DNA of 64,000 nucleotides, taken from a virus. The DNA lies in IMG/VR virus record IMGVR_UViG_3300047121_000347, positions 37,831 through 101,830 of that record; one strand, 5' to 3'. Made by a program: the position numbers and the translations under genes. Below the pieces are notes generated by a model. It was not told where the DNA came from. It saw only the letters and a list, made by a program, of their open reading frames with translations, and ran no database searches. Positions 5,723-38,127 of the stretch are shown here, one piece after another. Each line of letters begins with the position of its first letter. Position 1 is the first letter of the stretch.

Positions 5723-6196
5723 ATGAAAGTAGAAAAACCCTTGCAAGAAAAAGCTCCGGGCGAAAAGCGCCGCTCTGGAGGTGCGCAGCCCGGTGCGGGC
5801 CGACCGGCGTTTGTGCCCACGAAGACCGAGCGGGAGCTGGTCGCGACGCTCTCGGGGTATGGGTTGCCGCAGGATCAGATTGCGATTTTGGTCCGCGAGG
5901 GCATCGACCTCAGCACCCTGCGTAAGCACTTTGAGCGGGAGCTGCTGCTCGGCAAGGCGCACGCCAACAGCAAAGTCGGCAAGACGCTTTTTACCAAAGC
6001 CGTCGAGGGCGACACGGCCTCGGCCATATGGTGGTCGAAGACGCAGCTGCGTTGGGCCGAAACGCATCGCATCCAGCACGCCGGAGCGGACGATGGGCCG
6101 CTGCGGGTTGAGGTAAACGTATTTGACGAGATTCTGAAAAACATCGAGCTCAAACGGCGCACGTCCGATGAGGGCGGCGGTAGTGGGCGCGGCTGA
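5723..6196 (+). CDS. terS: Terminase small subunit, copy 1 (HTH type)
   Basis: GRP..PT, G...DQIA, TLRKHF..EL..G, GDTASAIWW.K motifs; overlaps TerL. The 5549 start lies inside the repeat region and is unlikely. Confidence 0.75.
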   Translation: MKVEKPLQEKAPGEKRRSGGAQPGAGRPAFVPTKTERELVATLSGYGLPQDQIAILVREGIDLSTLRKHFERELLLGKAHANSKVGKTLFTKAVEGDTASAIWWSKTQLRWAETHRIQHAGADDGPLRVEVNVFDEILKNIELKRRTSDEGGGSGRG

Positions 6197-7640
6197 TTCG
6201 GCGCTCCGGGACCTGCTGCAAGACGCAAAGCTGCGCGAAGAGTTCGGCCGGCTACCGCTCGAGCGGCAAGCCGCTTGGGCGTGGCGGGCGCTGTGGCTTT
6301 CGAAGGCGCACCTGCATCAGCTGCTGCCCCAGGGCGAATGGTGGAGCATATGGTTGATGTTGGCGGGCCGGGGCGCGGGCAAGACCCGCACCGCCGCCGA
6401 GCAGGTGGGGTGGTGGGCGTGGAGCTACCCCCGGACGCGATGGCTAGTGGCGGCGCCAACCTCCTCGGACGTGCGTGGCACCTGCTTTGAGGGCGACTCG
6501 GGACTGCTCACCGTGATTCCGCAGGTGCTCATCAGCGAGTACAACAAAGCACTGCACGAGTTGAAGCTGACCAACGGCTCGCTGATAAAAGGCATTCCGG
6601 CCTCGGAGCCCGAGCGGTTCCGGGGGCCGCAGTTTCACGGTGGATGGTGCGACGAGCTAGCGGCGTGGGAGTACCTGCAGGAGGCGTGGGACCAGATTCA
6701 GTTCGGTGTGCGCCTCAAGCTGCCCGACATGAAGTCCCGCCTGCTCATCACCACGACCCCCAAACCCCGCGACCTGATTGTTGACCTCATCAGCCGGGAA
6801 GGCACCGACGTCACCCTAACCACGGCGAGCACGTACGCGAACGTGGATAACCTGAGTGACAACTTCAAAGCGCAGATCCTGGCGTATGAGGGTACCAACC
6901 TCGGCCGGCAAGAGATCCACGCCGAAGTGATTGACCCGGAAGAAGGGGGTATAGTCAAGCGGGATTGGTTCAAGCTCTGGCCAGCGGAGAGAGAGCTCCC
7001 GAAGCTGGAGTTCATCGTTCAGTCGTACGACTGCGCGTATACGGAGAAGACGCACAACGACCCCACGGCGTCGATCACCTTCGGAGTGTTCAAGCCGCAA
7101 GACGGCCCGATGGGCGTGTTGGTCATCGACGCGTGGCAGGATCACCTGCAGTACCCCGACTTGAAACCCAAAGTCATCGACGAGTACGACATTGTCTTCG
7201 GCGAGGGGCGCAATCTGAAGAAGGTCGACCTCGTGCTCGTTGAGGACAAAGCGGCGGGCATCGTGCTCATTCAAGACCTGCAGCGTGCGCATGTGCCGGT
7301 GCGGGCGTACAACCCCGGCAAGGCCGATAAGATCCAGCGCCTGAGCATAGTTGCCAACATCGTCCGCGCTGGCCGGGTCTACATCCCGGAGTCTAGCGCT
7401 CGGACGGGCTACGTCCGTGACTGGGCCGAGGGCATGATCACGCAGATCTGTAGCTTCCCCAACGCCACGCACGATGACTTTGTGGATGCTTTCAGCCAGG
7501 CGCTGCGGTACATGCGCGATGCGGGTTGGCTCAACATTGACCCCGCGCCGCGTGATGACTACGACCCCGAGGATTACATTGACGCCCTCAATGACTCGGA
7601 CGACTACACCGGACCCAAGGTGAACCCCTATGCCGCCTAG
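6168..7640 (+). CDS. terL: Terminase large subunit
   Basis: AGRGAGKT Walker A, RFRGPQ, WCDE Walker B, SYD...DPTA, FPNATHDDFVDA nuclease motifs. Start may be GTG 6183. Confidence 0.95.
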   Translation: MRAAVVGAADSALRDLLQDAKLREEFGRLPLERQAAWAWRALWLSKAHLHQLLPQGEWWSIWLMLAGRGAGKTRTAAEQVGWWAWSYPRTRWLVAAPTSSDVRGTCFEGDSGLLTVIPQVLISEYNKALHELKLTNGSLIKGIPASEPERFRGPQFHGGWCDELAAWEYLQEAWDQIQFGVRLKLPDMKSRLLITTTPKPRDLIVDLISREGTDVTLTTASTYANVDNLSDNFKAQILAYEGTNLGRQEIHAEVIDPEEGGIVKRDWFKLWPAERELPKLEFIVQSYDCAYTEKTHNDPTASITFGVFKPQDGPMGVLVIDAWQDHLQYPDLKPKVIDEYDIVFGEGRNLKKVDLVLVEDKAAGIVLIQDLQRAHVPVRAYNPGKADKIQRLSIVANIVRAGRVYIPESSARTGYVRDWAEGMITQICSFPNATHDDFVDAFSQALRYMRDAGWLNIDPAPRDDYDPEDYIDALNDSDDYTGPKVNPYAA

Positions 7641-10566
7641 CCTAATGCCCCCCAGCCCCGAGGAACTCGAAGAGCTCCGCGCTCAACGCCGCTTAAAGCT
7701 ACCTCCGGGGGTTCAACGCGCTACTGCGGCCGCCCCAACTCGGGGTAGCGTGGCCCCTGTGCCCGGAATCCGCTACCCGGCTGAGTTCATCGGCGGGTTT
7801 GCGGGCGCTAACCAGCGCCGCAGCGTCATGGAGCCCGACGCCGAAGGTCTTGAAAGCGCCTACCGCGCCGGGGAGGCCACCAGCGTGCTCGGTGATTTGT
7901 TTGGCTCGTTGACCCCGTTCGCGACCGCCTCAACGCTGTCCCGTGTGGGGGCGCTACCCGGCGCGGCGGTCATCAAACCCAAAGGCGGCAACTGGCTTGC
8001 CGGGTCGTTCTCGGCTGAGCGGGCGCTCGAGCCGTTGAGGAAACCCATGCCTTCCCGCGCCACTGACGCCTTCGGCAATGAGGTTCCTAACCCGCTGGCC
8101 AACTCGCCGATGTACACGGAAAACGCCGCCCTCAACAAGTGGATTGATACCAAGCTCACCAAGTACGTCAAGAACGAAATGGCTACCCCCGAGGACCCCG
8201 TCCGGGCACTCGCTGAGCGGGGCACGCTGCACTTTGAGCCGCAAGATGCCCCAAGGCCTATGGGGTTTGAGAGGGAGGGCCGGACGCTACGTGAAAACCG
8301 AGAGGCCAGCGGCTATCCTATTGAGGGTCTAGGTAAATCCAACCTCGCCAAGGACTGGGAGGCTCTCGCTGATATAAACATACAGCCCGATAAAGCTGAG
8401 GTGTTTCAGTCGATGCAGTTGGTTGAAGCAAACCCTTGGCTAGCGAAAGTGTCGCCTGATACGCCGGTGTACGGTATGAATCTGAGCACCGATATGTCTA
8501 AGCTCGGCTTCCCGCACATCATCGACGAGCTAACCAACGCCATGAACCCCAACTCGGGGCTGCCGGCGTCGTTGCGGCTGACCCCGCAGCAGCTTGAGAA
8601 GATCACGGTGCCGCAGGCCGTCGAGCGGGTCGCAAAGATCAACGAGTGGCGGGCGGCGCAAAAGGTCGAGGCCGACGCCCTCAAGGCGCGCAACCCCGCC
8701 ACGTTCGAGCACCGCGCCTATGAGACCGTTCCGGGCACCACCGAGCCCAACGAGAAAGGCCTGCGTTGGGTAGAGTTGAAAGCCTCCACAGAGCCCGTCG
8801 ACGTGAGTAGCATGCTGATTCAAAACGCCGGCAAGTACTCAATCCTTGAGCCGGGGCAGAAACTATCCTGGAAAGACCCTAAGACCGGGCGCGTGCTGTT
8901 TGACACACCCGAGAAAGCCGCCAAGGCTTACACCGAGCACAAGCATTACGCCTCACTCGAGGACGCCCTCAAGTACGAGGGCGACGTCATGGGGCACTGC
9001 GTCGGGGGCTACTGTCCGGACGTCATCGAGGGGCGCAGCCGCATTTACAGCCTGCGCGACAAGAAGGGCGAACCCCACGTAACGATTGAGGTCGCGCCTC
9101 ACAATCCGAATCTTGAGTCTGTTTACGCGAAACAGAACCTCCCTGAGCTTTACGCAAAGTACAGCGCAGATCGAAATAAGTATTCTAACAGTTGGCCTGA
9201 ATTTCTTAAAACAGAAGCGCCAGAACTTTTAAACGCAACGGAAAACAAAATCATCCAAATCAAAGGCAAGGCCAACCGAGCCCCCAAGGACGAGTATCTG
9301 CCCTTTGTGCAGGACTTCGTGCGTTCGGGGCGGTGGTCGAGTGTCGGGGACTTAGGTAACACCGGGCTGATCCGTATCAACCCCGACAGCGACCTAGGTA
9401 TGAACCTTCGAGCCGCGAATGTAACCGCGCCCGAGTTCGTCACGCAACGCCAACTCAGCGATCTCTTAGACAAATACGGCAGGACAAACCTACCGCCTAG
9501 TAGCCCAGAAGGCTACGCCGCCGGTGGCGCGGTGCGCATGAACGAGGGCGGCAAACCCCCTAAGCGTCGGGCGTCAGACCTGCCCGGTTACGGCGAGGGC
9601 TCCGCCGGAGCGTTGAGCGACGTGGTGCGCGGGTTCATGGGCGAGAAACCCGCCGAACCCACCAACCCCAGCGAGCTGTTCCGACTGGCGCAAGCCCTCG
9701 GGGCGTTTCCGCCGGTGGCGGGCGCAGTCGGGGCCGTGAAGCGTCCCGCCGGGGCAGCGGCTGCGTTGCGCGAGCTGTTGAAAACCGAAGCCCCCGCGCA
9801 GTCCGCCGCCGCTCGGGAGGCGCTCCGTCGTGCATACCGCACCGGCCACGAGCACTCCGTCGTGGGGCTGACCGAAGCCGGCGTCCCAGGCGAAGTTGTT
9901 ACCTCGGGCAACCGCACGCGAGTCATCCCCAGTGCGGCGGACGTCAGCCGAGCGGTCAGCGACCCGCAGCGTCGCGCGATTGTAGACTTCCACACTCACC
10001 CGAGCGACGTCAGCGGGCTGCGGGTTTCGCCCAGCGCGGATGACGTGGCGTTTTACGCCGACTACGAGCGGGGTGCGTGGCCCCGGACGTTGAAGACTTT
10101 CATCGCCTCGCCCCCCTCAACCGGAGGTGGCCGAGCCTCCACGGCGTACAGCTTCTTTGAGACCGACGTGCCGCGTCGCGTTTACGACAAAGATCTTTTT
10201 GAAAAAGCCGAACTGGAGCTGCAAAACGCGGGCCGACTCGGCCGGTTTGACCGCGTGCGGCGCGACCCGGCGTTTGCGGCGGCGTTTGAGTCCGGTGCGG
10301 TGGACCTGCAAGACCTGCTCGGTGAGGCGGCCCCGTTGTTGCTGCTCGAACGGCGAGCCGCTCAGGGCGCGGGTCGGCAGCGGTTGGACCTGGGCGCTAA
10401 CGCCGTAGCCCCCAACGCTGAGCTGCGTGACTTTTACGAGATGATTCGCGAGCCCGCTCAAGAGTTCCTGAAAAAGAACAAGCTCAAAAAGGGCGGTGCG
10501 GTTAAAATTGAAACTAATCCCACGCTCATGGCCGATGAGCTGTTGTTCAAGGGCTACAGGCGCTGA
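7630..10566 (+). CDS. Multidomain protein: PcfJ-like domain plus C-terminal JAB/MPN-like domain; probably virion-packaged
   Basis: EGDVMGHCVGGY..IYSLRD..PHVTIEV..QIKGKAN (PcfJ-like); EH...DFHTHPS..PSADD (JAMM-like); YAAGG, MNEGG and LKKGG linkers. Confidence 0.65.
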   Translation: MPPSLMPPSPEELEELRAQRRLKLPPGVQRATAAAPTRGSVAPVPGIRYPAEFIGGFAGANQRRSVMEPDAEGLESAYRAGEATSVLGDLFGSLTPFATASTLSRVGALPGAAVIKPKGGNWLAGSFSAERALEPLRKPMPSRATDAFGNEVPNPLANSPMYTENAALNKWIDTKLTKYVKNEMATPEDPVRALAERGTLHFEPQDAPRPMGFEREGRTLRENREASGYPIEGLGKSNLAKDWEALADINIQPDKAEVFQSMQLVEANPWLAKVSPDTPVYGMNLSTDMSKLGFPHIIDELTNAMNPNSGLPASLRLTPQQLEKITVPQAVERVAKINEWRAAQKVEADALKARNPATFEHRAYETVPGTTEPNEKGLRWVELKASTEPVDVSSMLIQNAGKYSILEPGQKLSWKDPKTGRVLFDTPEKAAKAYTEHKHYASLEDALKYEGDVMGHCVGGYCPDVIEGRSRIYSLRDKKGEPHVTIEVAPHNPNLESVYAKQNLPELYAKYSADRNKYSNSWPEFLKTEAPELLNATENKIIQIKGKANRAPKDEYLPFVQDFVRSGRWSSVGDLGNTGLIRINPDSDLGMNLRAANVTAPEFVTQRQLSDLLDKYGRTNLPPSSPEGYAAGGAVRMNEGGKPPKRRASDLPGYGEGSAGALSDVVRGFMGEKPAEPTNPSELFRLAQALGAFPPVAGAVGAVKRPAGAAAALRELLKTEAPAQSAAAREALRRAYRTGHEHSVVGLTEAGVPGEVVTSGNRTRVIPSAADVSRAVSDPQRRAIVDFHTHPSDVSGLRVSPSADDVAFYADYERGAWPRTLKTFIASPPSTGGGRASTAYSFFETDVPRRVYDKDLFEKAELELQNAGRLGRFDRVRRDPAFAAAFESGAVDLQDLLGEAAPLLLLERRAAQGAGRQRLDLGANAVAPNAELRDFYEMIREPAQEFLKKNKLKKGGAVKIETNPTLMADELLFKGYRR

Positions 10567-10580
10567 GAGGAACCCGAGCT

Positions 10581-13142
10581 ATGGCTATCGAATTTCCACA
10601 ACCCCAACTTGAAGACGAACTGCCCGCTGGGCCGATGACCGTCGAGTACGAAGAGGAAGAACTCGAGCTGGGTGACGCCGAGCTTGAGGAGCTGCCCGAT
10701 GGGTCGGTGCTCGTCAATCTTGAGCCGGATAGCGGCCCGGAGGAGAACCCCGAGTTCTACGCCAACCTGGCGGAGGTGTTTGATCCGCTCGACCTTGACA
10801 CGCTCGCTAGTCGGTACTTGGAACTCATCAAGAAAGACAAAACGGCGCGGGAAGATCGCGACAAACAGTACGAAGAAGGCCTCAAGCGCACCGGGATGGG
10901 CAAGGACGCCCCCGGCGGTGCGACGTTCATGGGCGCGAGCAAGGTCGTACACCCCGCGATGGCGGAGGCCTGCGTCGACTTTGCCTCCCGAGCCATAAAA
11001 GAGCTATTCCCGCCCGACGGCCCCGTCAAAACTAAGATCCTCGGCCAAAACGATGAGGAGAAAACCCAGCGTGCGGAGCGTAAGCGCGACTGGATGAACT
11101 GGCAACTCACTGAGCAGATTGAAGAGTTCCGCGACGAGCAGGAGCAACTCCTCACTCAGCTGCCCCTGGGCGGGTCGCAGTACCTGAAGCTCTGGTACGA
11201 TGACCGGCAAAAGCGCCCTTGCGCCGAGTTCCTGCCCATCGACAAGGTGTTGATACCCTTTTCGGCCACGAACTTCTACACCGCGCAGCGGGCCACCGAG
11301 ATTCACGACATCAGCGAGTGGGAGTTCAAGCGTCGAATCAGCTCCGGTATGTATCGCGACATCAGTTTGATCCGCGCCACCATGGAGCCCGAGGAAACTA
11401 AGGCCGAAAAGGCCAACAACAAGATCGAAGGCCGCAAGTGGGATGAGAACACCGACGGCGAACGCCGTGTTTTTCACATCTACACCTGGCTCGAGTTTGA
11501 AGATGACCGCGAAAGCGGGGGCGAAATGGCCCCGTATATCCTGATGATTGACGAACTTGAGTCGGAAGTGGTGGGGTTGTACCGGAACTGGGAAGACGGC
11601 GACGAATCGATGACCAAACTGGACTGGGTCATTGAGTACAAGTTCATTCCGTGGCGTGGAGCGTACGCAATCGGGCTGCCGCACCTCATTGGGGGGCTCT
11701 CGGCGGCGTTGACGGGGGCGCTGCGTGCCCTGCTCGACTCGGCGCACATCAACAACGCGCCGGCGATGCTCAAACTGAAGGGCGCAAAGGTGAGCGGGCA
11801 GAGCCAACAGGTCGACATCACGCAGGTTGTTGAGATCGAAGGCGCACCGGGCGTGGACGATATCAAGAAAATCGCAATGCCTATGCCTTTTAACCCCCCG
11901 AGCGCTGTGCTTTTTGAGCTTTTGGGGTGGCTTGACAAGGCCACTAAGGGCGTAGTCACGACGGCGGAGGAAAAGATCGCCGACGTGAGCGCGCAAACCC
12001 CCGTCGGCACTACGCAGGCGCTCATCGAGCAAGGCGCGGCGGTTTTCAGCGCCATTCACGCCCGGCTGCACGATGCGCAAGGCCGACTTTTGAAGGTTCT
12101 GGGGCGGTTGAACCGCTGGTACCTGAGCGACATGCGTAAAGGCGAGGTCGTGGCGGACCTCGAGATTGAGGAAGCTGATTTTCAACGCAATACGGACGTG
12201 GTGCCGGTTTCGGACCCGCATATCTTTAGCGAAACCCAACGCATGGCGCAGATTCAGGCGGTGCTGGCCCGTGCGGACGCCGCGCCGGACCTCTACGACC
12301 GGCGGGCGGTGGAAGAACGGCTGCTGAAACAGCTGAAAATACCCGGCTACAACGAACTGCTCAAGAATACGCCTTCGCCGGACGAACTCAGCGCGGTTGA
12401 TGAGAACGTTGCCATGGCGTTGGGGCAGAACGGCTACGCCTATATGCATCAAGATCACTTGGCGCATATTCAGACGCACTTGGACTTTGCCCTGAACCCG
12501 GCGTTCGGTGGTAACCCCATCATGGCGTCGATTTACCTGCCTCGGGCGCTGGAGCACGTGAAGCAGCACATGATTCTGTGGTACCTGAACCGCTCGCAAG
12601 GGTACGTCACCAAGCTCCGCAACGGTCGCCCCGTGACCGAGGCCGAGTACGAGGACAAAACCCTCACGGCGCAGATCGACAAAGTGTACGCCCTCGTGTC
12701 GCAACACGTCAAGTCCGACGCCGAGCAGGCGTTCGGTAAGATTCTTCCCCTCGTCGGACAGCTGCTTCAGGCGATGCAACAAATGACCCCGCAACCTCAG
12801 TTGCCACCCGAGGCGCAAGTGCTCAAGGAAACCAGCCTGGCGGAAACCCAGCGCCGTGCCCAGCGCGACGCAGCGGAGATGCAGCTCAAAGGAGCCGACA
12901 TGCAACAGCGGGGGCAGATTGACGTGGCGCGGCTTCAAGCCGAGCAACAACGCGCCGCCGAGCGTGATCAGATTGACGTGGCGCTGAACGCCTCGGATAA
13001 CCTGACCCGCGAGCGCATAGAAACCGCACGCCTGACTCAAGAAGACGACAGGCTGCGCACCGAGCAGTACGAGACTGCAATCCGGCTTCAAAACGAAGCC
13101 CAACGTAACCTAGGAGCTGAACGTGGCCCAACCATCCAATAA
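10581..13142 (+). CDS. Portal protein (podovirus type)
   Basis: 853 aa downstream of TerL; GASKVVHP, ELFPPDGPVK, PVGTTQALIEQG, coiled-coil C-terminus. Confidence 0.85.
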   Translation: MAIEFPQPQLEDELPAGPMTVEYEEEELELGDAELEELPDGSVLVNLEPDSGPEENPEFYANLAEVFDPLDLDTLASRYLELIKKDKTAREDRDKQYEEGLKRTGMGKDAPGGATFMGASKVVHPAMAEACVDFASRAIKELFPPDGPVKTKILGQNDEEKTQRAERKRDWMNWQLTEQIEEFRDEQEQLLTQLPLGGSQYLKLWYDDRQKRPCAEFLPIDKVLIPFSATNFYTAQRATEIHDISEWEFKRRISSGMYRDISLIRATMEPEETKAEKANNKIEGRKWDENTDGERRVFHIYTWLEFEDDRESGGEMAPYILMIDELESEVVGLYRNWEDGDESMTKLDWVIEYKFIPWRGAYAIGLPHLIGGLSAALTGALRALLDSAHINNAPAMLKLKGAKVSGQSQQVDITQVVEIEGAPGVDDIKKIAMPMPFNPPSAVLFELLGWLDKATKGVVTTAEEKIADVSAQTPVGTTQALIEQGAAVFSAIHARLHDAQGRLLKVLGRLNRWYLSDMRKGEVVADLEIEEADFQRNTDVVPVSDPHIFSETQRMAQIQAVLARADAAPDLYDRRAVEERLLKQLKIPGYNELLKNTPSPDELSAVDENVAMALGQNGYAYMHQDHLAHIQTHLDFALNPAFGGNPIMASIYLPRALEHVKQHMILWYLNRSQGYVTKLRNGRPVTEAEYEDKTLTAQIDKVYALVSQHVKSDAEQAFGKILPLVGQLLQAMQQMTPQPQLPPEAQVLKETSLAETQRRAQRDAAEMQLKGADMQQRGQIDVARLQAEQQRAAERDQIDVALNASDNLTRERIETARLTQEDDRLRTEQYETAIRLQNEAQRNLGAERGPTIQ

Positions 13143-13290: not shown

Positions 13291-13478
13291 CCCTAACCCT
13301 GAGCCAACTGATTGGCGCATTCAAGGCACGTCAGGCTGAAATAGGCCATTCCCTAGCGGCGGGCAACGCTGCGACCTGGGAGGCGTACCAGCGCATGGTT
13401 GGCGAACACATGGGGCTGCAAAAAGCCCTTGACATTATTGAGAACTTTATAGAGGAAGAAGATGAACATGATGACTGA
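13287..13478 (+). CDS. Small head-module hypothetical protein
   Basis: 63-aa ORF coupled to both neighbours. Confidence 0.75.
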   Translation: MTLTLSQLIGAFKARQAEIGHSLAAGNAATWEAYQRMVGEHMGLQKALDIIENFIEEEDEHDD

Positions 13479-13902
13479 ACCAGTAGCGTCGCAAGACGCT
13501 GAGATGGCTTGGGCTTTCCCGAGCGTGGATCCTGGTGCGCAGCCGTTAGGTGGACGTATACTGGTGCAACTGCGCCGTAGCCGTAAAAAGACCACCAAAG
13601 CAGGAATCGTACTTGTTGAGGAAACCAAAGAGACCGAAAAGTGGAACACCCAGGTCGCCAAGGTCATCGCCGTGGGGCCGCTCGCCTTTCGGCATCGCGA
13701 CTCGATGAACCCCTGGCCCGAGGGGTCGTGGTGTGGGGTGGGTGACTTTATTCGTGTGCCCAAGTGGGGCGGCGACCGCTGGGAGGTCAAAGTGCCCGGT
13801 GAGGACCACCTTGAGGACCCCGCACTGTTCATGATCGTTAATGATCACGAGGTCATTGCCCGAATCACCACTAACCCCCTCGAGACTAAGGCATTCCTAT
13901 GA
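13462..13902 (+). CDS. groES: GroES/Cpn10-like co-chaperonin
   Basis: QPLGGRILVQ, TKAGIVL mobile loop, AKVIAVGP, VGD. Confidence 0.8.
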   Translation: MNMMTEPVASQDAEMAWAFPSVDPGAQPLGGRILVQLRRSRKKTTKAGIVLVEETKETEKWNTQVAKVIAVGPLAFRHRDSMNPWPEGSWCGVGDFIRVPKWGGDRWEVKVPGEDHLEDPALFMIVNDHEVIARITTNPLETKAFL

Positions 13903-14891
13903 GCACGAGCACCGAAGTAAAAGAACCCGATATCGAGATCACCGAGCAGCCCGACGGTTCAGTCGCGGTGGCGCTGCCGGAAGGTCTCGCTCCACCCTCG
14001 GTTCAAGATGACGATGAGGACGACTCACCGCAAAACAAAGCCGAAGGCGGCCCCGCCGACGACCCGGCTGACGCCGATGCCGACGACGACACCGAGGCGC
14101 TACGCAACGCCAAACGCGAGCGCCGCCGCGCCAAGCGCGAACTAGCCCGCAAAACCAGCGCCGAGAAAGACCAGCGGTTGCAACTGCTGCAGCGACAAAA
14201 CCAAGAGCTAATGGAGCGGCTGAGCGTGGTTGAGCGTAAAACGCACGCCGGCGAAATCGCCAAGCTCGACAAGGCGGTCGAAGACCAAGAGCTGCGGCTC
14301 GAGTACGCCAAGCGCAAGATCGCCGAAGCCACCCGTGCTCAAGACGGCGACGCCCTGGCGCAGGCCCAGGAGCTCTGGTACGAGTCGAGGCAACAGCTCG
14401 AAGCCTTGAAAAACCTCAAAAAGGCCAGCACCACCCCCCGGCAGCAGAACAACCTGCCCGATGCGAGGGTGCAGAAAATGGCCGCCGACTGGATTCGACG
14501 CAACGACTGGTACGACCCCCAGCACCGCAACACCGACTCCCGAATCGTCAAGCAGATAGACGAGGAACTCACCGCCGAGGGCGGTTGGGACCCGGCAACC
14601 GAGGAGTATTGGGAAGAGCTCGACGAGCGGGCAAAAAAGTACTTGCCTCATCGGTATGAATTGAGCTATAATGCTCCGAATCAGCGTTCAAGGCCTCGGA
14701 ATATGCAAACTAGCACCGGTCGCGAATCATCCAACAGTGGCGGCTCCCCCAAGGGGCAGTTCATGCTCGAACCGGATCAGGTACGCGCCATGAAGGATGC
14801 CGGCTTTTGGGACGACCCCGTCAAGCGCAACAGTATGATCAAGCGCTACGCGGCGGAAGCTCGCAAACGTGCTGCTGCAAACCCACGCTAA
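13899..14891 (+). CDS. Putative capsid scaffolding protein
   Basis: Acidic N-terminus, long coiled coil, W..RN.WY; lies between portal and capsid genes. Confidence 0.6.
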   Translation: MSTSTEVKEPDIEITEQPDGSVAVALPEGLAPPSVQDDDEDDSPQNKAEGGPADDPADADADDDTEALRNAKRERRRAKRELARKTSAEKDQRLQLLQRQNQELMERLSVVERKTHAGEIAKLDKAVEDQELRLEYAKRKIAEATRAQDGDALAQAQELWYESRQQLEALKNLKKASTTPRQQNNLPDARVQKMAADWIRRNDWYDPQHRNTDSRIVKQIDEELTAEGGWDPATEEYWEELDERAKKYLPHRYELSYNAPNQRSRPRNMQTSTGRESSNSGGSPKGQFMLEPDQVRAMKDAGFWDDPVKRNSMIKRYAAEARKRAAANPR

Positions 14892-16105: not shown

Positions 16106-17023
16106 ATGGCAGCCCCAATGCGCAGTACGGACTTTCGGAGCATCGTTGAGCCTATCCTGAACGAGTGCTTCGACGGAGTCTATGATCAGCGTGCCGATGA
16201 GTGGTCGCGAGTCTTCCGCGAGCAGAACGGCATCCCCCGTAATTACCATGAGGAACCCGTCCTGTACGGTTTTGGCTTGGCACCGTTGCTCCCCGACGGC
16301 AGCCCCGTAACCTATCAGCAAGGTGGCGTGTTGTTCCTGAAGCGTTATGTCTACTCGGTGTACGGTCTAGCCTTCGCGTTGACGAAAGTCCTCGTCGAAG
16401 ACGGCGACCACATCCGCATCGGGTCGGTGTACGCTCGTCACCTGGCACAGTCTTTGGTCGAGACCAAAGAAACCCTGTGCGCCAACGTGCTGAACAACGC
16501 CTTCACGGGCGGGCAGTATGCCGGTGGTGACGGTGTAGCGCTTAACAGTGCCTCACACCCCATCGTGAACGGTACGGTGAGCAACCTCCTCACCACAGCG
16601 GCCAACCTCAGCCAGACCTCCCTTGAGCAGATGCTCATTCAGGTGCGTCAGGCGGTTGACAACAACGGCAAAAAGATTCGCCTCGTGCCACGACAGCTCG
16701 TCGTCGCCCCAGGCAACATCTTCCAAGCCGAAGTGTTGCTCAAGAGTGTGCTGCGTGCCGGTCAAGCCAACAACGACATCAACCCAGTCAAATCTATCGG
16801 TTTGCTCGATGAAGGTGCTGCGGTTCTGTCGCGTTTGACCAGCTCGACCGCATGGTGGGTGCAGACCGACACGCCCGAAGGTATGAAGCTCATGATGCGT
16901 CGCGGCCTTGAAAAGACCATGGAAGGTGATTTCGAAACCGACTCCATGCGCTACAAGGCCACCGAGCGTTACGATGTGGGCTTTACCGATTGGCGCGCAA
17001 TGTACGGCACGCCCGGAGTCTAA
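16106..17023 (+). CDS. Major capsid protein (HK97 fold, Mu gpT-like)
   Basis: ANVLNNAF, GGDGVAL..HP, P.QLVV.P, RY..GFTDWR..YG.PG; strong GGAGG RBS; followed by a terminator. Confidence 0.9.
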   Translation: MAAPMRSTDFRSIVEPILNECFDGVYDQRADEWSRVFREQNGIPRNYHEEPVLYGFGLAPLLPDGSPVTYQQGGVLFLKRYVYSVYGLAFALTKVLVEDGDHIRIGSVYARHLAQSLVETKETLCANVLNNAFTGGQYAGGDGVALNSASHPIVNGTVSNLLTTAANLSQTSLEQMLIQVRQAVDNNGKKIRLVPRQLVVAPGNIFQAEVLLKSVLRAGQANNDINPVKSIGLLDEGAAVLSRLTSSTAWWVQTDTPEGMKLMMRRGLEKTMEGDFETDSMRYKATERYDVGFTDWRAMYGTPGV

Positions 17024-17031
17024 GGAAACCA

Positions 17032-17053
17032 GGGGGCTGCGGCCCCCGCTTTA
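17032..17053 (+). terminator. Rho-independent terminator after the MCP
   Basis: GGGGGC-TGCG-GCCCCC followed by GCTTTAT. Confidence 0.6.
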
Positions 17054-17066
17054 TAGGAGTTAAAGT

Positions 17067-17750
17067 ATGACTACGACTCGGTTTCCTAATGGGGTCACCA
17101 ACGTGGGTGAGCAGTCGCTGTTTGCTGAGCTAGGCCAGCCCGCAGCCACGCTGTATCACACCTACTTTGAGGACTTCGACTACTACACGGCGGCCGACTG
17201 GACGGTGACCGAAACCGACGCAGGGGCAACCCAGGCGTTGGCTGATGGTGATGGGGGTTTGTTGCTCATCACTAACACCGCTGCTGACAATGACCTTGTG
17301 TCGTTGCAGAAGAAAGGTGAGTCGTTCCGGTTCGCTAGCGGTAAACCACTGTTCTTTGAGGCTCGCTTCAAAGTCAGCGACGCCACGCAGTCGGACGTTG
17401 TCATTGGTCTGCAGATCACCGACACGACCCCGCTTGATGTGTCTGACGGCGTCTTCTTCATCAAAGCTGATGGTGCTGCGACGGTCAATTTCCTTGTTGA
17501 GAAAAACAACACGGCAACCACCGCGAGCGCTGTGGCCACGATGGCAGATGACACCTACATCCGTCTTGGGTTTTACTATGACGGGATTTCGGCGGTGCAG
17601 TACTTTGTGAATGGCTCAATCGCTGGCAGTTCGGTAACTACCAACCTGCCCGACGATGAGGACATGACCATCACCATCGCAATCCAGAACGGTGAAGCCG
17701 TCGCCAAGACCATGACCGTGGACTATGTCTATGTAGCCAAGGAGCGCTAA
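17067..17750 (+). CDS. Putative capsid decoration protein (beta-sandwich)
   Basis: MTTTRFPNGVTN arm, beta-rich body; follows the MCP. Confidence 0.55.
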   Translation: MTTTRFPNGVTNVGEQSLFAELGQPAATLYHTYFEDFDYYTAADWTVTETDAGATQALADGDGGLLLITNTAADNDLVSLQKKGESFRFASGKPLFFEARFKVSDATQSDVVIGLQITDTTPLDVSDGVFFIKADGAATVNFLVEKNNTATTASAVATMADDTYIRLGFYYDGISAVQYFVNGSIAGSSVTTNLPDDEDMTITIAIQNGEAVAKTMTVDYVYVAKER

Positions 17751-17752
17751 TC

Positions 17753-18577
17753 ATGGGCCAATTTAAACCGATGGTTAAAATGATGACCACCGAGCCTTCA
17801 GTGATTCTGAAACTGAAGAAAGGCGGTTCGGTCAAAGCGCCCAAAAAGATGATGGACGGTGGGGTGATGCGTGGTCTTGCGGCCGCGCCTGCACCCGGTG
17901 CCCGAGGCGGGATGCCTCCGGCGGTTGCTCCGGCACGTCCCTCGATGGCTATGCGTCGCAAAGCGATGATGGCTCGCCCGATGATGAAAGAGGGCGGCGA
18001 AAGCAAAGCTGAGCACGCCGCTGAGATGAAGAAGATGATGGGCACCGAGGCTAAGCTCAAAAAGCACGCCTCTATGCCTGCTTCTAAAGCTCACAAAGGT
18101 CTTGCAACCGGCGGTGTGGCAATGGGTCAGGCAGGGTTCAAAAAGGGTGGAGTAATTGGCGTAGCGGCCTCTGAAAAGGGAGCTAAGGGTTATGTCAAGA
18201 CCAAGATGGACACTGCTTCAGGCGAGCATCACACTCCGAAGAAGACTGGCGACGTGGCAATGGGCAAACCCGGCGGTTACAAGCACGGCGGGAGCCCCAA
18301 GTACGCTAAAGGTGGCGGAGTCGAAGGTAATGTTTCGACGTCCAAACCCGGCCCAACCAACACCACCACTGGCGAAGTGAAGAAAGGCAACGCCGGGGGC
18401 TTTAAGAAAGGCGGTGCGTTGGGAAAGCGTTATGCTACGGGGGGTCTAGTCGATAGCGGACGTCCCGTAGCGATGCCTCGGCACCCGGTGTCGAAACCCG
18501 TGGCTAATGACCTGCAGTCCGGAACCTTCAAAAAGGGTGGCGGAGTACAGAAAAAGGCCTACGGCGGCGCGTGCTAA
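17753..18577 (+). CDS. Highly basic K/G/M-rich protein with about 10 hydrophobic-x-x-GG repeats; candidate internal/core protein
   Basis: LKKGG, MMDGG, MKEGG, LATGG, FKKGG (x3), YKHGG, YAKGG, YATGG, KAYGG. Confidence 0.75.
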   Translation: MGQFKPMVKMMTTEPSVILKLKKGGSVKAPKKMMDGGVMRGLAAAPAPGARGGMPPAVAPARPSMAMRRKAMMARPMMKEGGESKAEHAAEMKKMMGTEAKLKKHASMPASKAHKGLATGGVAMGQAGFKKGGVIGVAASEKGAKGYVKTKMDTASGEHHTPKKTGDVAMGKPGGYKHGGSPKYAKGGGVEGNVSTSKPGPTNTTTGEVKKGNAGGFKKGGALGKRYATGGLVDSGRPVAMPRHPVSKPVANDLQSGTFKKGGGVQKKAYGGAC

Positions 18578-32151: not shown

Positions 32152-35100
32152 ATGGCGACTTCACCTTTATCGATAACGCCCGAAGCACTCAAATCGCTTT
32201 ACGATGACTTGACAAGCCAAGGTTACAGCCATGATGTTCTCGTCAATGCTGCGAGACAAAACTACGGCATAGATCTTGATCAGGCTTTGAAAAGTTCCGC
32301 GCCCATTTCTTACGCTGACAAAATCAATTCAGGACCGTTGGAGAAAGCCGCTCAGCCCACTTACGCCGAGTATCAAGCATCACTCCCCGCTGCGAAATCT
32401 ACTGTTCCTGGCACTGACCTAACGTACACTCGAACTTCAGATGACACGAGCTGGTTAAGTAATGTTCGACAAGGCTATGGGCCGCAGGGTCAGGGTGCTC
32501 GCACTGAAGAGCAGATACCGAGCCTTTATCGTGACCCGGATTCAGGTTACGGTGTTGGGGTTGAGATGGAGGACGGGCAGGTTCAAAAGCTCGTTTACTA
32601 CGACCCGCAAGGCCGAAAACTGCGATCAAGTATTTTTACTGCGCCAGAACTGTATAAAAACGCCAATGAATTTGGAATCAATTTAAGTGGAATCGGTAGT
32701 CTAGGTACAGCATTAGACGCTGCAGGAATAAAATATAAGCCCGGAGAGCTTTACGCAGGCGTTGGTTCAAACTTAGGGATCAATTTTAATGACATTGCAG
32801 CCGGTAAACTCGGCGCTGCATACGACTGGACACAAGACCCGTTTGCATCAACTAAAGGTCCATACGGCTCGCAGACGCTCGCCGAAAATCAAAATATTGC
32901 GCGAACGCTAAATGTTAAACCTGAGCTTTCAGAAAACCTTGCCACAATTGATCCTTATAAAGGACCTACGGGAACACGAAACTTTGCCGTAGTTATACCT
33001 AGTATTTCGGGTTCTCCGACCGTTGCATATTACGCTACTGCTGAAGAGGCTGAAGCTGCAAAATATTTATACGGAGGTACGCTTTATAACGTAGCTGAAA
33101 GTCCATTAGATGTGGGTAACGATGGGACAGTTACTACTTCGCAAAATGCGACCGCTTCTGCGCCGTTAGGTGCGTTATCTACCGCTACAAATACAGCGCC
33201 TGCAACTGGCGCACTACCGACAAGCGGTTTTGATGCATTTGGTAACCCAAGGGGTAATACCTGGACGGAAGACCGTTACAACCCCAATGATCCCGCTTCA
33301 TCAAGCTACATAGCAGACCCTAATGCTGGTCGGTATGTGTTTGATCCAGCCACTGGCAAACATACCCTTGTTCCTAGCACTGGCGCAACGTCAGTTACGG
33401 GCGCAACAGGTAATGACACTGTTACAGGCGCTCTTGATACGGCCAGTAGATTTTACGACCCAGTCTTGAAATCCAACTGGGAAATAGAAAATGTTGGCGA
33501 TCTTGGACTGGCAAACGATCCAAGATTTCAGGGTCAGGGTTCTCAGGTTTACATTGACCCCAAAACGGGTCGTATGTTATCCCGTGATGAATACTTGCAA
33601 GTTGCCAATACAACAGAGGCTGTTAGCTATCGCGCTGAACAAGAGCGCATTGCCGCTGCAAATGCAAAATTATTTAGGCCTGGAAACACATTAGACAACC
33701 CTCTTGCAGGTGTTACTGATTTTGGCGGCGACACTGCCATTTCGTTGCTTACGGCAAGCCCAAACATTTCTGCTGCAATACAGCACAAGTCAACATTTGT
33801 TAAGCCTTACAAGATTATTAACGGCAAATTACAAGAAGTGACTGATGCGGACATCACGCCACAAGACATCGCATCTAACAGCGTTTACTTTTACATTGGT
33901 GGCGCCACAGGTGGACCAGATCGCCAGCGCATGGCGCAGTTGTATCAATCCAAAGGTGACAAGCTGGTGCCTGTTGGCGATCCAAGCTTTTATCAAGGCG
34001 CTCACCCAGATCAAGCGGCTATGGACTTTGCAAGAATCGCATTGCCCATTGCGCTATCGTTTGTTCCAGGCCTCGGTACTGCCATTGGTGGTGCATTAGG
34101 CGCAACTGGCGCTGCTGCCGGTGCTTTAGGTTCAGGCGTATTAAGCTTTGGTACGCAACTGGCCATGGGTGCCGATCCTTTGCAGGCCTTAAAAGGTGCG
34201 GCGTTAAGTGCGGCGGGTGGCTATCTCGGCAGCCAGATTAGCTCAATGTTACCCACTGAAGTTGCAGGTATTGGAAAAAACGTCATTACGCAACTTGTAA
34301 CAACGGGCAAACTTGATCCGGCTGCGTTAGCAACAAGCGTTGGCACTAGCTTTGCCACAGACGCTTTGGCAGCAGAAACCGGCATGGACAAAGCCACTGC
34401 TGCAAAAATCGTTACGGCAGGTTTGCAGGCTATACAGGGCAACGAATTAGCCGCATTGACATCATTAGCTCAGGCCGGTATTCAATCAGGCCTTGCTGGC
34501 ACAGGAGTAACAGCACAATCACCTCAAGACCGGGCCGCATTTCTTGAGGCCAACGCGTCACCACTTGGGTTAAGTGCGCTTAGTCCGATCGCCGCTGAAG
34601 ATGAGGAGATTGCACTGCTGCAACGGCAAAACGCTGCCAATCAAGCCCTGTCAGATTATCTAGGGCCAGGCAATGACTTAAGCCGTGAGGGTCTTGTTAG
34701 TCAATTGAAAAACCTTGGCTTCACGGCAGATCAGGCCGAAGGTTTCGCAATACAAGCAGATCAGCGGATCAATATGCAGCGCGTTGGCGCTGATGTGATG
34801 AGCCGCTACTCAAAGATTGATCCTGAGTTCGGCACACCACAGCTTGATCGAGACATAGCGTGGGCAGAAATGGTTGCTGCTGGCTTTTCATCAGATCGTG
34901 CTAATGAAATATTGAACGGTATTGATGCGCAAAATGCGATCAAGTTAGAAAACAAACTGAGCGTTCAGTCTGCATATCAAAACTTCACGCAAGGCAAAGG
35001 CTCTGAAGACCAGCTACGCAGCGCTCTAACCTCTGCTGGCTATAACGACGCGCAGATCAACGAACTTGTCACGCGTGGTCGAGGTGTTCTTGAAGGTAGC

Positions 35101-38100
35101 AAATTAACCTCTGGTGAGCAAGCACAGATTCGCGCTGAGAACCTGCCCGACATCAGGAGTGAGATCGCAGGCAAGAGCAATTTCAATGATGCCTATGCTT
35201 TAGCGCGGGATAAACTCGGTGCTGATGCCACGTTTACCTGGCAAGGCAAAACTTATAGCACTGCCACGGCAGCAGAAAGACCTGACCTATCAGGCACAAC
35301 AAGCAAGCCAACGGCTGAAGTCCCGTATGTCGCACCTAACGGTATGCATAACCGCGCAGCCTTTATCCAGGCTGGTGGTGGTACAAGCGACGCTGATTAC
35401 GCCAAGTACGTTCAGGCAGTAAACGCCGTTATTGCCGAAGGGAAATCGGGCACGTTAATCACGCCTGCATCGGTTAATAGCACTGGTAAAGAGATGCCAT
35501 CGACCACAGGCCCGGTCACGATGGAAAAGCCCAGTGTTGACTCAGTGCTTGGCAGTGTTGCTGCGCAAGGTGTAGCGAGCTTCGGGGCCAACTCCATCGC
35601 TGGCGTATTAAGTGCATTAGGCTTTACAGATGCGGGTAGAACAGTGCTTGATAAGGCCAATCAAATTGCTGCTGCCGCTACTGCAGCAGAAGGCGCTGAC
35701 ATCACGCAAGGCAAGAGGGACATCAATGCTGCCATCCAAAGAGTTGGCGAGTCCTCTGGAATCAAAGACTTTGCTACCAATGTCGGCAACTTAGTATCAA
35801 CAGCTTTTAATAATCCAAAAGCATTTGGCGCTACTGTTGGCAGTGAGGTTGTTGAAGAAGTATTGCAACTTGCCACACTGAAGTTCCCTGGCAGCTTCCT
35901 TGTCAAAGAGACCGTTGCCTCGGCCTTAGAAAATGGCGGTGCTGCTTACAACACGGAATATGAGTCACAGATTGCCAAAGGCGCTTCCAAGGAAGATGCG
36001 CACTTGGCCGCTCAGAAAGCTGCCGGCACGGCTGCTGGCGTCACCGTAGCCCTGGCAGGCGGTGCTGCTGGCTTAGGCAAGGTGGCCGGCAAGGTCTTTG
36101 GCAGCCAAGCTGATGAGGCAGCAAGTGGCGTATCTCAAGTTGGCAAGACCACGCTGAGAGAGTCAGCACAAGAAGTGCTCGAGGAAGGCAGTATTGCCGG
36201 GTCGATTGATTTGGCGTTGGGTAGGCCTGTCGATGCTGTAAACGCGCTTACTAACATGACGGGCGGTGCTTTGTATGGTGGCGTTACGGCAGGGTCCATG
36301 CAAGGCACGAAGCTTGATACACTTGATCAAGCCGCATCAACATCGATTGGCTCAGGCGTTCAAGCCTCATTCAATGACACGCTCGCTCAAACTGGCAACA
36401 TCGCTCAGGCTTCGACCAACTCGGTTACCACTGCGATCAATAATGGGCTTGACCCTGGCGCAGCGGTTTCAACCGTGATTGACACAGCAGCCAAGTCGGG
36501 CGGTGATATGTCAGCCGTTATCACTGCGTCAATTAATACGGGTCTTTCGACTGCTCTAAGCAGTGGCGTAGATACCTCAACAGCCGTCAGCACGATTGTT
36601 GCAGGCTCCGTTACCGCATCGCTCAACAACGGTGTTAATGCTTCGATGGCGGTCTCTTCAACCGTTGGATCTTCAGTCAAGACAGGAATTGAAAGCGGTG
36701 CTGACGCCTCGACTGTTATTGCATCCTCGGTAACTACAGCCGTTTCGACTGCTACACAAAATGGTGCCAATTCGACAGCGGTTGTTGCAGGCTCAACGAG
36801 CACGGCAATATCAACAGCAATTGCAAGCGGTGTTGATGCAAGCACTGCTATTAGCTCTGCTGTTGACTCGGCTACCAAGGCAGGGGCTGACACCTCAGTT
36901 GCCACAGCGTCTTCAATTACGGCTGCGGTTGCTGCCGGCACGGATACAAACACGGCTATCGCGGCAGCTACGGGTGCGAACTCAAACATTACGGCAAATA
37001 GCACAACAAACAACAATGTCACATCCACAGTCGTAACGGATACGAAGACAGGCGTAACAAGTCAGACCGTGGTTGACAGTACCAATAATGCGTCAACGAC
37101 TACAACGACTAATAACAACGTCACCTCACAGGTAACGACGGTTGGCAGTACAACCACTACAGTTACAAGCGATACAAGTACGGGCGTGACCACTCAAACA
37201 ACAGTTGATGGCACTCGCTCAACAGACGTCACGGTCAATACAACCACAAATGTCACGACACAGGTCGTTACAGATACAAACACAAACACCAAAGTGACTG
37301 TGGAGTGGGAGCCTGATGGGGAGACCAGGTGCACTTTTACGGATCCTGAAGGTCGGGAAACTGTTTTTGATGATCTTGACGTTGGCGATCCTCCAAAGGT
37401 TGACATTGTTGTGCCCCTTGAGCCTGTTAAACCAGAAGTCAAGCCTGAAACGCCGAAAGAAACAAAACCCAAGACCTCTCAATCGGGCAGCGGTTCCGCC
37501 ATGATGATGCCCGCGATGGCGGGTGCGGCGGCTGCGGTTGATTGGTTAGGTCCGCAGTTTTTGAAGTCTAAAGAGCGCGGTACTTATGTTGACCCACTTG
37601 CCGAATTTCAAGCGCTGCAGCAACAAGCCGACCAACAGCAAATACTCAGTCAAATACAACCCGAACTAGCTAATGTTTTAACGGAGCGCGGTGCTATGCC
37701 CTATTATGCCTATGGCCAAGAGCCCTCGATTGATGAAGTTCTGGGCTTGCCCGATCAAGAATCTTCAAGCTATAATGAATCGGATTACGTTCCGGTGTTC
37801 AAATCAGGCGGAAAAGTATCCCCGCTGAACATTCAAATGATGTACGCCAAAGGTGGGCACGCTCGTGAAGACTTCCGTGACGGTAAGCATGTGGCCGGCC
37901 CCGGTGACGGGCAGTCGGATGATATTCCGGCGTGGCTCGCTGACGGGGAGTTCGTATTCCCGGCGGATGTGGTCAGCGCCCTCGGAAACGGCTCAACAAA
38001 GGCCGGAACCGAAAAGCTCTACGAGATGATGCATGAGATCAGAGGTCGTGCTCGCTCAAAACACCCGAAAGACCTGCCTCCGCCGGCGCACAAAAGCCCG

Positions 38101-38127
38101 CTTGATTACCTGAAGAAAGGCAAATAA
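32152..38127 (+). CDS. Very large internal/ejection protein (1991 aa)
   Basis: Low-complexity A/G/T/S segments; C-terminal YAKGG..GPGDGQSDDIPA.L.DGEFV domain. Confidence 0.7.
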   Translation: MATSPLSITPEALKSLYDDLTSQGYSHDVLVNAARQNYGIDLDQALKSSAPISYADKINSGPLEKAAQPTYAEYQASLPAAKSTVPGTDLTYTRTSDDTSWLSNVRQGYGPQGQGARTEEQIPSLYRDPDSGYGVGVEMEDGQVQKLVYYDPQGRKLRSSIFTAPELYKNANEFGINLSGIGSLGTALDAAGIKYKPGELYAGVGSNLGINFNDIAAGKLGAAYDWTQDPFASTKGPYGSQTLAENQNIARTLNVKPELSENLATIDPYKGPTGTRNFAVVIPSISGSPTVAYYATAEEAEAAKYLYGGTLYNVAESPLDVGNDGTVTTSQNATASAPLGALSTATNTAPATGALPTSGFDAFGNPRGNTWTEDRYNPNDPASSSYIADPNAGRYVFDPATGKHTLVPSTGATSVTGATGNDTVTGALDTASRFYDPVLKSNWEIENVGDLGLANDPRFQGQGSQVYIDPKTGRMLSRDEYLQVANTTEAVSYRAEQERIAAANAKLFRPGNTLDNPLAGVTDFGGDTAISLLTASPNISAAIQHKSTFVKPYKIINGKLQEVTDADITPQDIASNSVYFYIGGATGGPDRQRMAQLYQSKGDKLVPVGDPSFYQGAHPDQAAMDFARIALPIALSFVPGLGTAIGGALGATGAAAGALGSGVLSFGTQLAMGADPLQALKGAALSAAGGYLGSQISSMLPTEVAGIGKNVITQLVTTGKLDPAALATSVGTSFATDALAAETGMDKATAAKIVTAGLQAIQGNELAALTSLAQAGIQSGLAGTGVTAQSPQDRAAFLEANASPLGLSALSPIAAEDEEIALLQRQNAANQALSDYLGPGNDLSREGLVSQLKNLGFTADQAEGFAIQADQRINMQRVGADVMSRYSKIDPEFGTPQLDRDIAWAEMVAAGFSSDRANEILNGIDAQNAIKLENKLSVQSAYQNFTQGKGSEDQLRSALTSAGYNDAQINELVTRGRGVLEGSKLTSGEQAQIRAENLPDIRSEIAGKSNFNDAYALARDKLGADATFTWQGKTYSTATAAERPDLSGTTSKPTAEVPYVAPNGMHNRAAFIQAGGGTSDADYAKYVQAVNAVIAEGKSGTLITPASVNSTGKEMPSTTGPVTMEKPSVDSVLGSVAAQGVASFGANSIAGVLSALGFTDAGRTVLDKANQIAAAATAAEGADITQGKRDINAAIQRVGESSGIKDFATNVGNLVSTAFNNPKAFGATVGSEVVEEVLQLATLKFPGSFLVKETVASALENGGAAYNTEYESQIAKGASKEDAHLAAQKAAGTAAGVTVALAGGAAGLGKVAGKVFGSQADEAASGVSQVGKTTLRESAQEVLEEGSIAGSIDLALGRPVDAVNALTNMTGGALYGGVTAGSMQGTKLDTLDQAASTSIGSGVQASFNDTLAQTGNIAQASTNSVTTAINNGLDPGAAVSTVIDTAAKSGGDMSAVITASINTGLSTALSSGVDTSTAVSTIVAGSVTASLNNGVNASMAVSSTVGSSVKTGIESGADASTVIASSVTTAVSTATQNGANSTAVVAGSTSTAISTAIASGVDASTAISSAVDSATKAGADTSVATASSITAAVAAGTDTNTAIAAATGANSNITANSTTNNNVTSTVVTDTKTGVTSQTVVDSTNNASTTTTTNNNVTSQVTTVGSTTTTVTSDTSTGVTTQTTVDGTRSTDVTVNTTTNVTTQVVTDTNTNTKVTVEWEPDGETRCTFTDPEGRETVFDDLDVGDPPKVDIVVPLEPVKPEVKPETPKETKPKTSQSGSGSAMMMPAMAGAAAAVDWLGPQFLKSKERGTYVDPLAEFQALQQQADQQQILSQIQPELANVLTERGAMPYYAYGQEPSIDEVLGLPDQESSSYNESDYVPVFKSGGKVSPLNIQMMYAKGGHAREDFRDGKHVAGPGDGQSDDIPAWLADGEFVFPADVVSALGNGSTKAGTEKLYEMMHEIRGRARSKHPKDLPPPAHKSPLDYLKKGK

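Follow-up and report, generated by a model that had tools for sequence, protein, structure and literature searches.

What kind of protein is encoded between the terminase and portal genes of a podovirus-like phage, and why are its modules bordered by a short motif with two adjacent glycines? The question is raised by an open reading frame (ORF) at 7630-10566 on the plus strand of the window, the 64,000-nucleotide stretch analysed here (positions 37,831 to 101,830 of virus record IMGVR_UViG_3300047121_000347), which encodes a protein of 978 amino acids (P0001). The junctions formed by the Gly-Gly (GG) motifs of this protein coincide with the recombination breakpoints at which cargo is exchanged between related phages. 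In our judgement it is rather probable that P0001 is a modular, polyvalent-type head accessory protein, with a fixed frame and swappable cargo, here a JAB domain, for which the motif provides the exchange junction. The motif system is the most novel and most testable part of the finding.

Cargo borders at the Gly-Gly motifs

The modules of P0001 and the two genes that flank it are arranged as follows (residue numbers are those of P0001).

6168-7640, plus strand: TerL, the large terminase (Pfam Terminase_6N, 4.8e-22, and Terminase_6C; PHROG terminase families)
7630-7926, plus strand: N-terminal leader, residues 1-99 (BLAST high-scoring segment pairs (HSPs) at query residues 23-113; N-termini of relatives)
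7927-9513, plus strand: PcfJ-like core, residues 100-628 (Pfam; alignment invariants; AlphaFold2 (AF2) model)
9514-9534, plus strand: junction motif 1, YAAGGAV, residues 629-635 (left DNA breakpoint of the cargo block)
9538-9552, plus strand: MNEGG, residues 637-641, a decayed second motif copy (intact copies in relatives)
9562-9726, plus strand: internal leader-like linker, residues 645-699 (HSPs to the N-termini of other members)
9727-10482, plus strand: JAB/JAMM module, residues 700-951 (invariant columns, AF2, structural matches)
10483-10503, plus strand: junction motif 2, LKKGGAV, residues 952-958 (right DNA breakpoint of the cargo cassette)
10504-10566, plus strand: C-terminal tail, residues 959-978 (KIETNPTLMADELLFKGYRR), plus the stop codon (near-identical across relatives)
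10581-13142, plus strand: portal (phrog_1216, 2.8e-15; tblastn matches to portal or head-to-tail connecting proteins)

The ends of protein alignments and the borders of conserved DNA blocks agree on where the cargo begins and ends. Within the core, 72 of 126 BLAST alignments stop between residues 629 and 646, and in 19 relatives with other cargo the alignment resumes exactly at residue 953. At the DNA level, a block of 83-95% identity starts at 10491 in all eight loci with other cargo and spans the whole portal gene, its first position falling on the GG codons of LKKGGAV. Two loci that share the JAB module (L011 and L015) have a block of 90-95% identity which starts at 9517, inside YAAGGAV, with a patchy core upstream, and a further two (L013 and L023) share only the DNA of the internal leader, 9570-9722. 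The JAB cassette proper therefore extends from about 9723 to 10490. The DNAs of the two junction motifs have just some 11 nucleotides of imperfect identity in common. An original prediction, made from the sequence of the window, had described the domains as delimited by GG motifs and had proposed checking whether homologues swap cargo exactly at them, which they do, in protein alignments and in DNA alike.

Around these borders the frame of the protein is fixed. The C-terminal tail is identical, or almost so, in relatives whose cores are merely 57-59% identical. In place of MNEGG, eight residues past the first motif, close relatives carry MKKGGAV, LKKGGAV or LKDGGKV. The internal leader-like linker is common to relatives carrying different cargo, and its BLAST HSPs (query residues 645-713) match the N-termini of other members of the family (P0017, P0066, P0071, P0076 and P0080). 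The homology of residues 645-713 to N-leaders elsewhere in the family makes P0001 a fusion of two leader-bearing units.

The position of the ORF between TerL and portal, as first proposed, is upheld by the matches of the flanking genes to Terminase_6N/6C and phrog_1216. The end of the TerL gene, with its stop codon, overlaps the start of the ORF by 11 nucleotides, and the portal gene starts 15 nucleotides past its end; the order of TerL, P0001-type gene and portal is kept in phage DSL-LC04 and in the IMG/VR loci. The ATG at 7630 is the likely start, because homologues align with P0001 from residue 1, while one gene caller chose a GTG at residue 44. Also as originally read, YAAGG lies at 9514, MNEGG at 9538, LKKGG at 10483, HTH at 9991-9999 and PSADD at 10030-10044.

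More than 1,131 homologues of P0001 were found, ranging from 542 to 1,675 residues, in which the core is conserved and the remainder varies. Its loci in IMG/VR number at least 553 and lie on contigs of about 52-60 kb. The cargo of relatives includes ART-PolyVal, RadC, LPD23, DUF7178 and DUF6973 domains, set in a fixed frame of N-leader (about residues 20-113), PcfJ-like core and C-tail; the leader remains N-terminal even where an ART-PolyVal cargo is placed ahead of the core. Among 62 complete core genes having upstream sequence, 14 are accompanied by the JAB module: in eight as a separate gene abutting the core gene upstream, in four as an N-terminal and in two as a C-terminal fusion. The JAB gene is always fused or adjacent to a GG-bearing core gene.

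Caulobacter phage RW and Roseobacter phage CRP-902 have no gene in the slot between TerL and portal; in pelagiphage HTVC023P the slot is filled by a 201-residue gene product, and in MW202545 it holds an unrelated, non-PcfJ protein of 890 residues with the same GG motifs and a similar C-tail. Because it is empty or differently filled in these cultured or GenBank relatives, the slot is accessory. In MW202545.1 (L092) the portal is 63% identical to that of the window, and the slot protein, encoded at 6227-8899, is rich in His and Cys.

The JAB/JAMM module and the PcfJ-like core

The C-terminal module of P0001 folds as a JAB/MPN domain, and its JAMM signature is intact and invariant across the family. 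Its metal-site residues are Glu741 (9850-9852), His788 and His790 (9991-9999) and Ser802 and Asp805 (10033-10044). In an alignment of 24 family sequences the Glu, D-x-H-x-H-P and P-S-x-x-D elements are invariant wherever the region is covered. The AF2 model of the module, with a predicted local distance difference test score (pLDDT) of 88.3 and a predicted template modelling score (pTM) of 0.84, consists of a JAB core and an extra helical C-terminal subdomain. The signature occupies the places expected of JAMM enzymes, with the Glu opening the first strand, the HxH closing a strand and the S-x-x-D opening the next helix. A Foldseek search of the PDB gave BRCC36, BubCD, an archaeal Rpn11 homologue, CSN5 and AMSH as top matches, with E values down to 9e-6. 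The 12 top rows of the VIA comparison were all JAB-fold chains with Z of 5.1-7.7, among them BubCD (7.7), Cap3 (7.5), PfJAMM1 (7.1), BRCC36 (6.4), RadC (6.0) and a bacterial deubiquitinase of ubiquitin-like (Ubl) proteins (5.6), and the Atlas structure rows concur on the JAB fold. The Z scores are middling, and the assignment is made because the matches are uniform and the signature invariant. The JAB/MPN-like domain that had been suspected here is thus borne out by a confident fold for residues 700-951, by JAMM structural matches and by the invariant E/HxH/SxxD residues. The module is predicted to be a divergent but intact metallohydrolase; a decayed, inactive JAB was considered and is rejected on the ground that the catalytic residues are invariant.

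The JAB family is rare, with 47 clusters at E<=1e-3 when residues 700-978 were searched against 1.84 billion representative proteins, and its members are stand-alone proteins of 250-270 residues or portions of larger ones. The Pfam Prok-JAB family (PF14464) is matched below threshold by 11 of the 24 members (best E 6.9e-4), the window copy reaching E 0.09 over HxH...SxxD. A profile of the family gave chance-level matches only against PDB sequences, and no solved JAB; the same is true of P0001 itself, whose matches there were all at chance level. Membership of RadC was also considered and is ruled out, since neither P0001 nor any of the 24 members matches Pfam RadC (PF04002), and hhalign of the family against P0047, a relative that bears a RadC domain, aligns the GG tail alone and not the RadC domain.

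The PcfJ-like identity of the core, likewise predicted beforehand, is supported by a Pfam PcfJ (PF14284) match of 33.3 bits against a gathering cut-off of 25, over residues 446-503 (8965-9138), and relatives of P0001 match the same family. The conserved core, about residues 100-628, is much larger than this match. Its invariants in the family alignment are HCVGGYC...PHVT.E, of which H456, C457, C462, H483 and E487 could form a metal or active site. The AF2 model of the core has a pLDDT of 84. The 545-residue core model searched whole with Foldseek gave nothing at E<0.001. The 50 top VIA rows for the PcfJ-like domain (about residues 355-581, nucleotides 8692-9372) are all GNAT/HAT1 with middling Z of 5.3-7.6, in alignments that cover residues 256-482 of the core model. 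There is no Pfam GNAT match in P0001, and an Atlas search with the PcfJ region returned just PcfJ-like or unnamed clusters. The resemblance to GNAT, seen in a predicted model, is only a lead.

The motif beyond the carrier family and its possible roles

The motif has the consensus G-[FY]-A-x-G-G-x-V, and 164 of 166 family proteins contain it, often as a tandem run of 2-4 copies; the final copy lies at a median of 22 residues before the C-terminus. Across related loci its density is 2.08 per 10,000 residues in sense-strand ORFs versus 0.15 in opposite-strand ORFs, a 14-fold enrichment. Conservation extends to both flanks of the GG and includes a hydrophobic residue at P5 and a Val at P2', a pattern unlike that of ubiquitin tails. 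The motif is disordered in the AF2 models of both the JAB module and the core, and the module's own copy is undocked, with a pLDDT below 50. DSL-LC04, the only GenBank phage with a PcfJ-like homologue (7335-9812), carries three GG motifs at the N-terminus of that protein (residues 26-71) and none at the C-terminus; the motif can therefore also precede the core. Literature searches on the motif and on capsid-targeting Gly-Gly returned nothing relevant, the sole KGG matches being to a bacterial stress-protein repeat.

The motif also occurs in two proteins of the window outside the PcfJ-like family, one of which is encoded shortly after the capsid gene.

16106-17023: capsid gene
17753-18577, plus strand: P0169, a basic, Gly/Lys/Met-rich GG-repeat protein of 274 residues (4 strict and about 8 relaxed motif copies)
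37798-37857, plus strand: FKSGGKV and YAKGG, about 100 residues before the C-terminus of a 1991-residue ORF (32152-38127)

The gene for P0169 sits two genes after the major capsid gene. Its product looks disordered, carries the relaxed motif form [FYLM]-x-x-G-G-x-V and has no Pfam or PHROG match. Downstream of the capsid gene, 23 related loci encode a basic GG-repeat protein, and no related locus with enough sequence clearly lacks one. In MW202545.1 it is a protein of 450 residues with seven motif copies (16399-17748). The 1991-residue ORF, which has no PHROG match, contains long Thr/Ser/Asn/Val-rich repeats, with its GG motifs near residues 1885-1900 and a conserved-looking C-terminal piece (DGEFVFPADVV...). 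Since the motif is common to the basic GG-repeat head protein and this late protein, it is probably also a signal, which a putative conserved head component would recognise.

Which enzyme or partner, if any, would act on the motif can be weighed from its distribution. JAMM enzymes cut after a C-terminal Gly-Gly, and one of the two options in the original prediction had the JAB domain processing the GG motifs. The JAB would then be a maturation protease that cuts its own polyprotein and the other GG-tagged head proteins. Consistent with this, every JAB module precedes a motif, the stand-alone forms of 250-270 residues end 8-15 residues past the GG, the motifs lie in disordered linkers, and the JAB gene keeps its constant association with the core gene. 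The motif is family-wide, however, and the module occurs in just 14 of 62 complete loci and in none of ten relatives that have complete genomes (CheckV 99-100%) and motif-bearing slot proteins. The same search detected the module in all four genomes known to hold it, and five of the ten have no Prok-JAB match either. The JAB is therefore not a general GG-motif enzyme, a conclusion reinforced by the presence of the motif in the non-PcfJ slot protein and GG-repeat head protein of MW202545; the P5 and P2' residues, which do not resemble ubiquitin tails, and the undocked state of the module's own motif point the same way. Processing by the JAB was thus not borne out as a general mechanism and is quite improbable as the role of the module, and GG cleavage by it as a lineage-specific extra is barely possible. 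A different, so far unrecognised head-maturation protease is an alternative that we consider doubtful though conceivable, by which modules would be released and the GG-repeat protein chopped into peptides within the head. It would account for a motif that is repeated four to about ten times in a basic, disordered head-module protein and stands at junctions and about 22 residues before C-termini, for a conserved tail past the last motif that could be a removable targeting piece, and for the coexistence of fused and split gene versions, as expected were fusion harmless. Against it, the genes from portal to capsid show no detectable protease family, and stand-alone modules would shed just some 10 residues. 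The motif could instead be an uncleaved docking peptide that would anchor cargo and GG-repeat protein to a putative partner, be it the inside of the HK97-fold shell, the portal or one another, which we regard as a tentative possibility on the unlikely side. Such a role would agree with a short linear motif that sits in disordered regions, often as tandem copies and close to C-termini, that is conserved on both sides of its GG and that co-occurs with a multivalent GG-repeat protein. The slot-less phages RW and CRP-902 also show no GG-repeat protein in the regions read, the CRP-902 region ending before its capsid gene. Against it, the co-occurrence is based on few independent lineages.

For the cargo itself, the alternative to a peptidase would be a RadC-like enzyme with nucleic acids or nucleotides as its substrates, an argument made for JABs within polyvalent proteins (Iyer et al. 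2017, PMC5512222). A genuine RadC domain occupies the cargo position in the relative P0047, and RadC is among the structural matches in VIA (Z 6.0) and in Atlas rows. The lack of a Pfam RadC match, the failure of hhalign to align the family with the P0047 domain, and top structural matches that are Ubl-directed (BubCD, Cap3 and PfJAMM1) speak against such an enzyme, which is unlikely on present evidence.

The reading of P0001 as a modular head accessory protein has several points weighing against it. No cultured relative carries a P0001-type gene, and the case for packaging is built only on where the gene lies and on the likeness to polyvalent and MuF proteins. The JAB family stays below Pfam thresholds, and its structural Z scores are middling (at most 7.7), with RadC within about 1.7 Z of the Ubl-directed JABs, so that the two are not separated. 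PHROG and Pfam scans of the genes between portal and capsid found no protease. The motif could also be merely a tolerated flexible linker, retained because recombination uses it.

With these points in mind, the modular head accessory protein may be pictured as follows. A fixed frame of N-leader, PcfJ-like core and C-tail would carry exchangeable cargo modules, in this case a divergent JAB/JAMM metallohydrolase. P0001 would have arisen by the joining of two leader-bearing units, leader-core-GG and leader-JAB-GG-tail. Each module would end in a disordered G-[FY]-A-x-G-G-x-V, where phages would trade cargo cassettes by recombination, and a conserved head component would read the motif as a signal, be it for entry into the head or for cleavage during maturation. 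By analogy with polyvalent and MuF proteins, P0001 is probably packaged and delivered along with the DNA, and it is plausible that the JAB would act as a packaged early effector, in line with the second option of the original prediction, an effector delivered against conjugation. Its candidate activities would be that of an isopeptidase on a host Ubl-type conjugate or that of a RadC-like nucleic-acid enzyme. A broader reading, which we consider less likely than not, is that the motif may be an undescribed short signal within a capsid-internal protein system, shared by a large clade of podovirus-like phages that live in fresh and marine waters and are uncultured. Effector modules, the GG-repeat protein and the giant late protein would all be tagged by it for head loading or maturation cleavage, and it would double as the recombination junction for injected effectors, including the JAB. 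Phages would then have their own equivalent of encapsulin cargo peptides or of GG-site processing in adenovirus.

Polyvalent and MuF-fused proteins are thought to deliver first-strike enzymes with phage DNA, while the exchange and loading of their cargo are poorly understood. The present family, known from at least 553 viral contigs, is a clean and abundant natural case: its ends are fixed, its enzymes can be swapped, and the borders between them lie on codons of a seven-residue motif. If the motif is a loading or cleavage signal, packaged effectors could be predicted from sequence and foreign proteins could be loaded into phage heads. The JAB module belongs to a rare, intact JAMM family without a characterised member, and if Ubl conjugates are what it removes, phages would be delivering a countermeasure to defences of the Cap2 or Bil type. 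Literature searches on counter-defence by phage JAB enzymes yielded no account of a packaged one.

Known systems and genomic surroundings

Polyvalent proteins of phages and conjugative elements are large, multidomain proteins predicted to be packaged and delivered with DNA, and nucleic acids or nucleotides have been proposed as the targets of their JAB domains (Iyer et al. 2017, PMC5512222). P0001 resembles them in being a multidomain protein of a terminase-portal phage with variable architectures, and its relatives carry ART-PolyVal, LPD23 and RadC-JAB domains; several of these cargo domains are signature polyvalent domains (PMC5512222). Judged by sequence, its multiple effector-type domains and its head/packaging context appear to place P0001 within the polyvalent definition. 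It differs from the published description in that the carrier here is a PcfJ-like core with fixed leader and tail, PcfJ being unmentioned there (PMC5512222), in that the JAB is a separate, rare family rather than RadC, and in that a specific GG motif, on which the DNA breakpoints fall, separates the modules.

As a head accessory protein encoded beside the portal gene and bearing swappable enzymatic cargo, P0001 also recalls minor capsid proteins of the MuF or SPP1 gp7 type, and JAB folds fused to Phage_Mu_F proteins are among its structural neighbours in viral structure libraries. Unlike these, P0001 lacks a MuF domain, and its gene precedes the portal gene instead of following it. Membership of the MuF group is ruled out, the Phage_Mu_F domain (PF04233) having no Pfam match in P0001 at E<1.

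The JAB module shares its fold and E...HxH...SxxD site with JAMM/MPN+ isopeptidases, such as Cap3 of the cyclic oligonucleotide-based antiphage signalling system (CBASS), the Bil-type deubiquitinase, BubCD, BRCC36, Rpn11 and PfJAMM1. It differs from them in the extra helical C-terminal subdomain and in the absence of a sequence-level match to any solved JAB, and from the Cap3 and Bil enzymes in that its operon consists of phage head genes and not of defence genes. No E1, E2 or Ubl Pfam family was matched among the head-module ORFs scanned. A Cap3/Bil-type operon is ruled out, the neighbours being TerL, portal and head genes, and the resemblance is one of fold only.

Polymorphic toxins offer a parallel for the junctions. 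Their demarcation motifs (VENN in CdiA, PxxxxDPxGL in Rhs) stand where a conserved delivery part gives way to hypervariable cargo and mark the junction of cassette exchange; in Rhs the protein is also cleaved there. The GG motif is likewise a short conserved border motif that serves as an exchange junction, but it has a different sequence, occurs in several copies per protein and also in a non-toxin repeat protein, and belongs to a phage head setting. For cleavage, the nearest parallels are adenovirus adenain, which processes core proteins at (M/I/L)xGG-x, and pS273R of African swine fever virus (ASFV), which processes polyproteins at GG-x. Hydrophobic-x-x-G-G motifs in virion-internal, basic proteins are the common feature, a likeness drawn here from sequence alone. 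In contrast to the adenovirus and ASFV systems, no clan-CE or other protease is detectable, and the hydrophobic residue is at P5, not P4. For docking, the cargo-loading peptides of encapsulins are the named analogue.

Elsewhere the window has the make-up of a podovirus-like late region, with tail-fibre genes, the 1991-residue ORF and a protein with a lytic transglycosylase-like N-terminus. The whole record, at 101,830 bases, is about 1.75 times the length of the complete genomes of relatives (52-60 kb, several with terminal repeats); it nevertheless holds only one copy of the 978-residue gene. The record could be concatemeric, or else chimeric and derived from two related phages. Within the head module, a 330-residue scaffold candidate is encoded at 13899-14891. 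The gene at 13462-13902 is GroES/Cpn10-like (Pfam Cpn10, 1.7e-7), and a GroES-like gene stands at the same place in Caulobacter phage RW, HTVC023P, CRP-902 and DSL-LC04.

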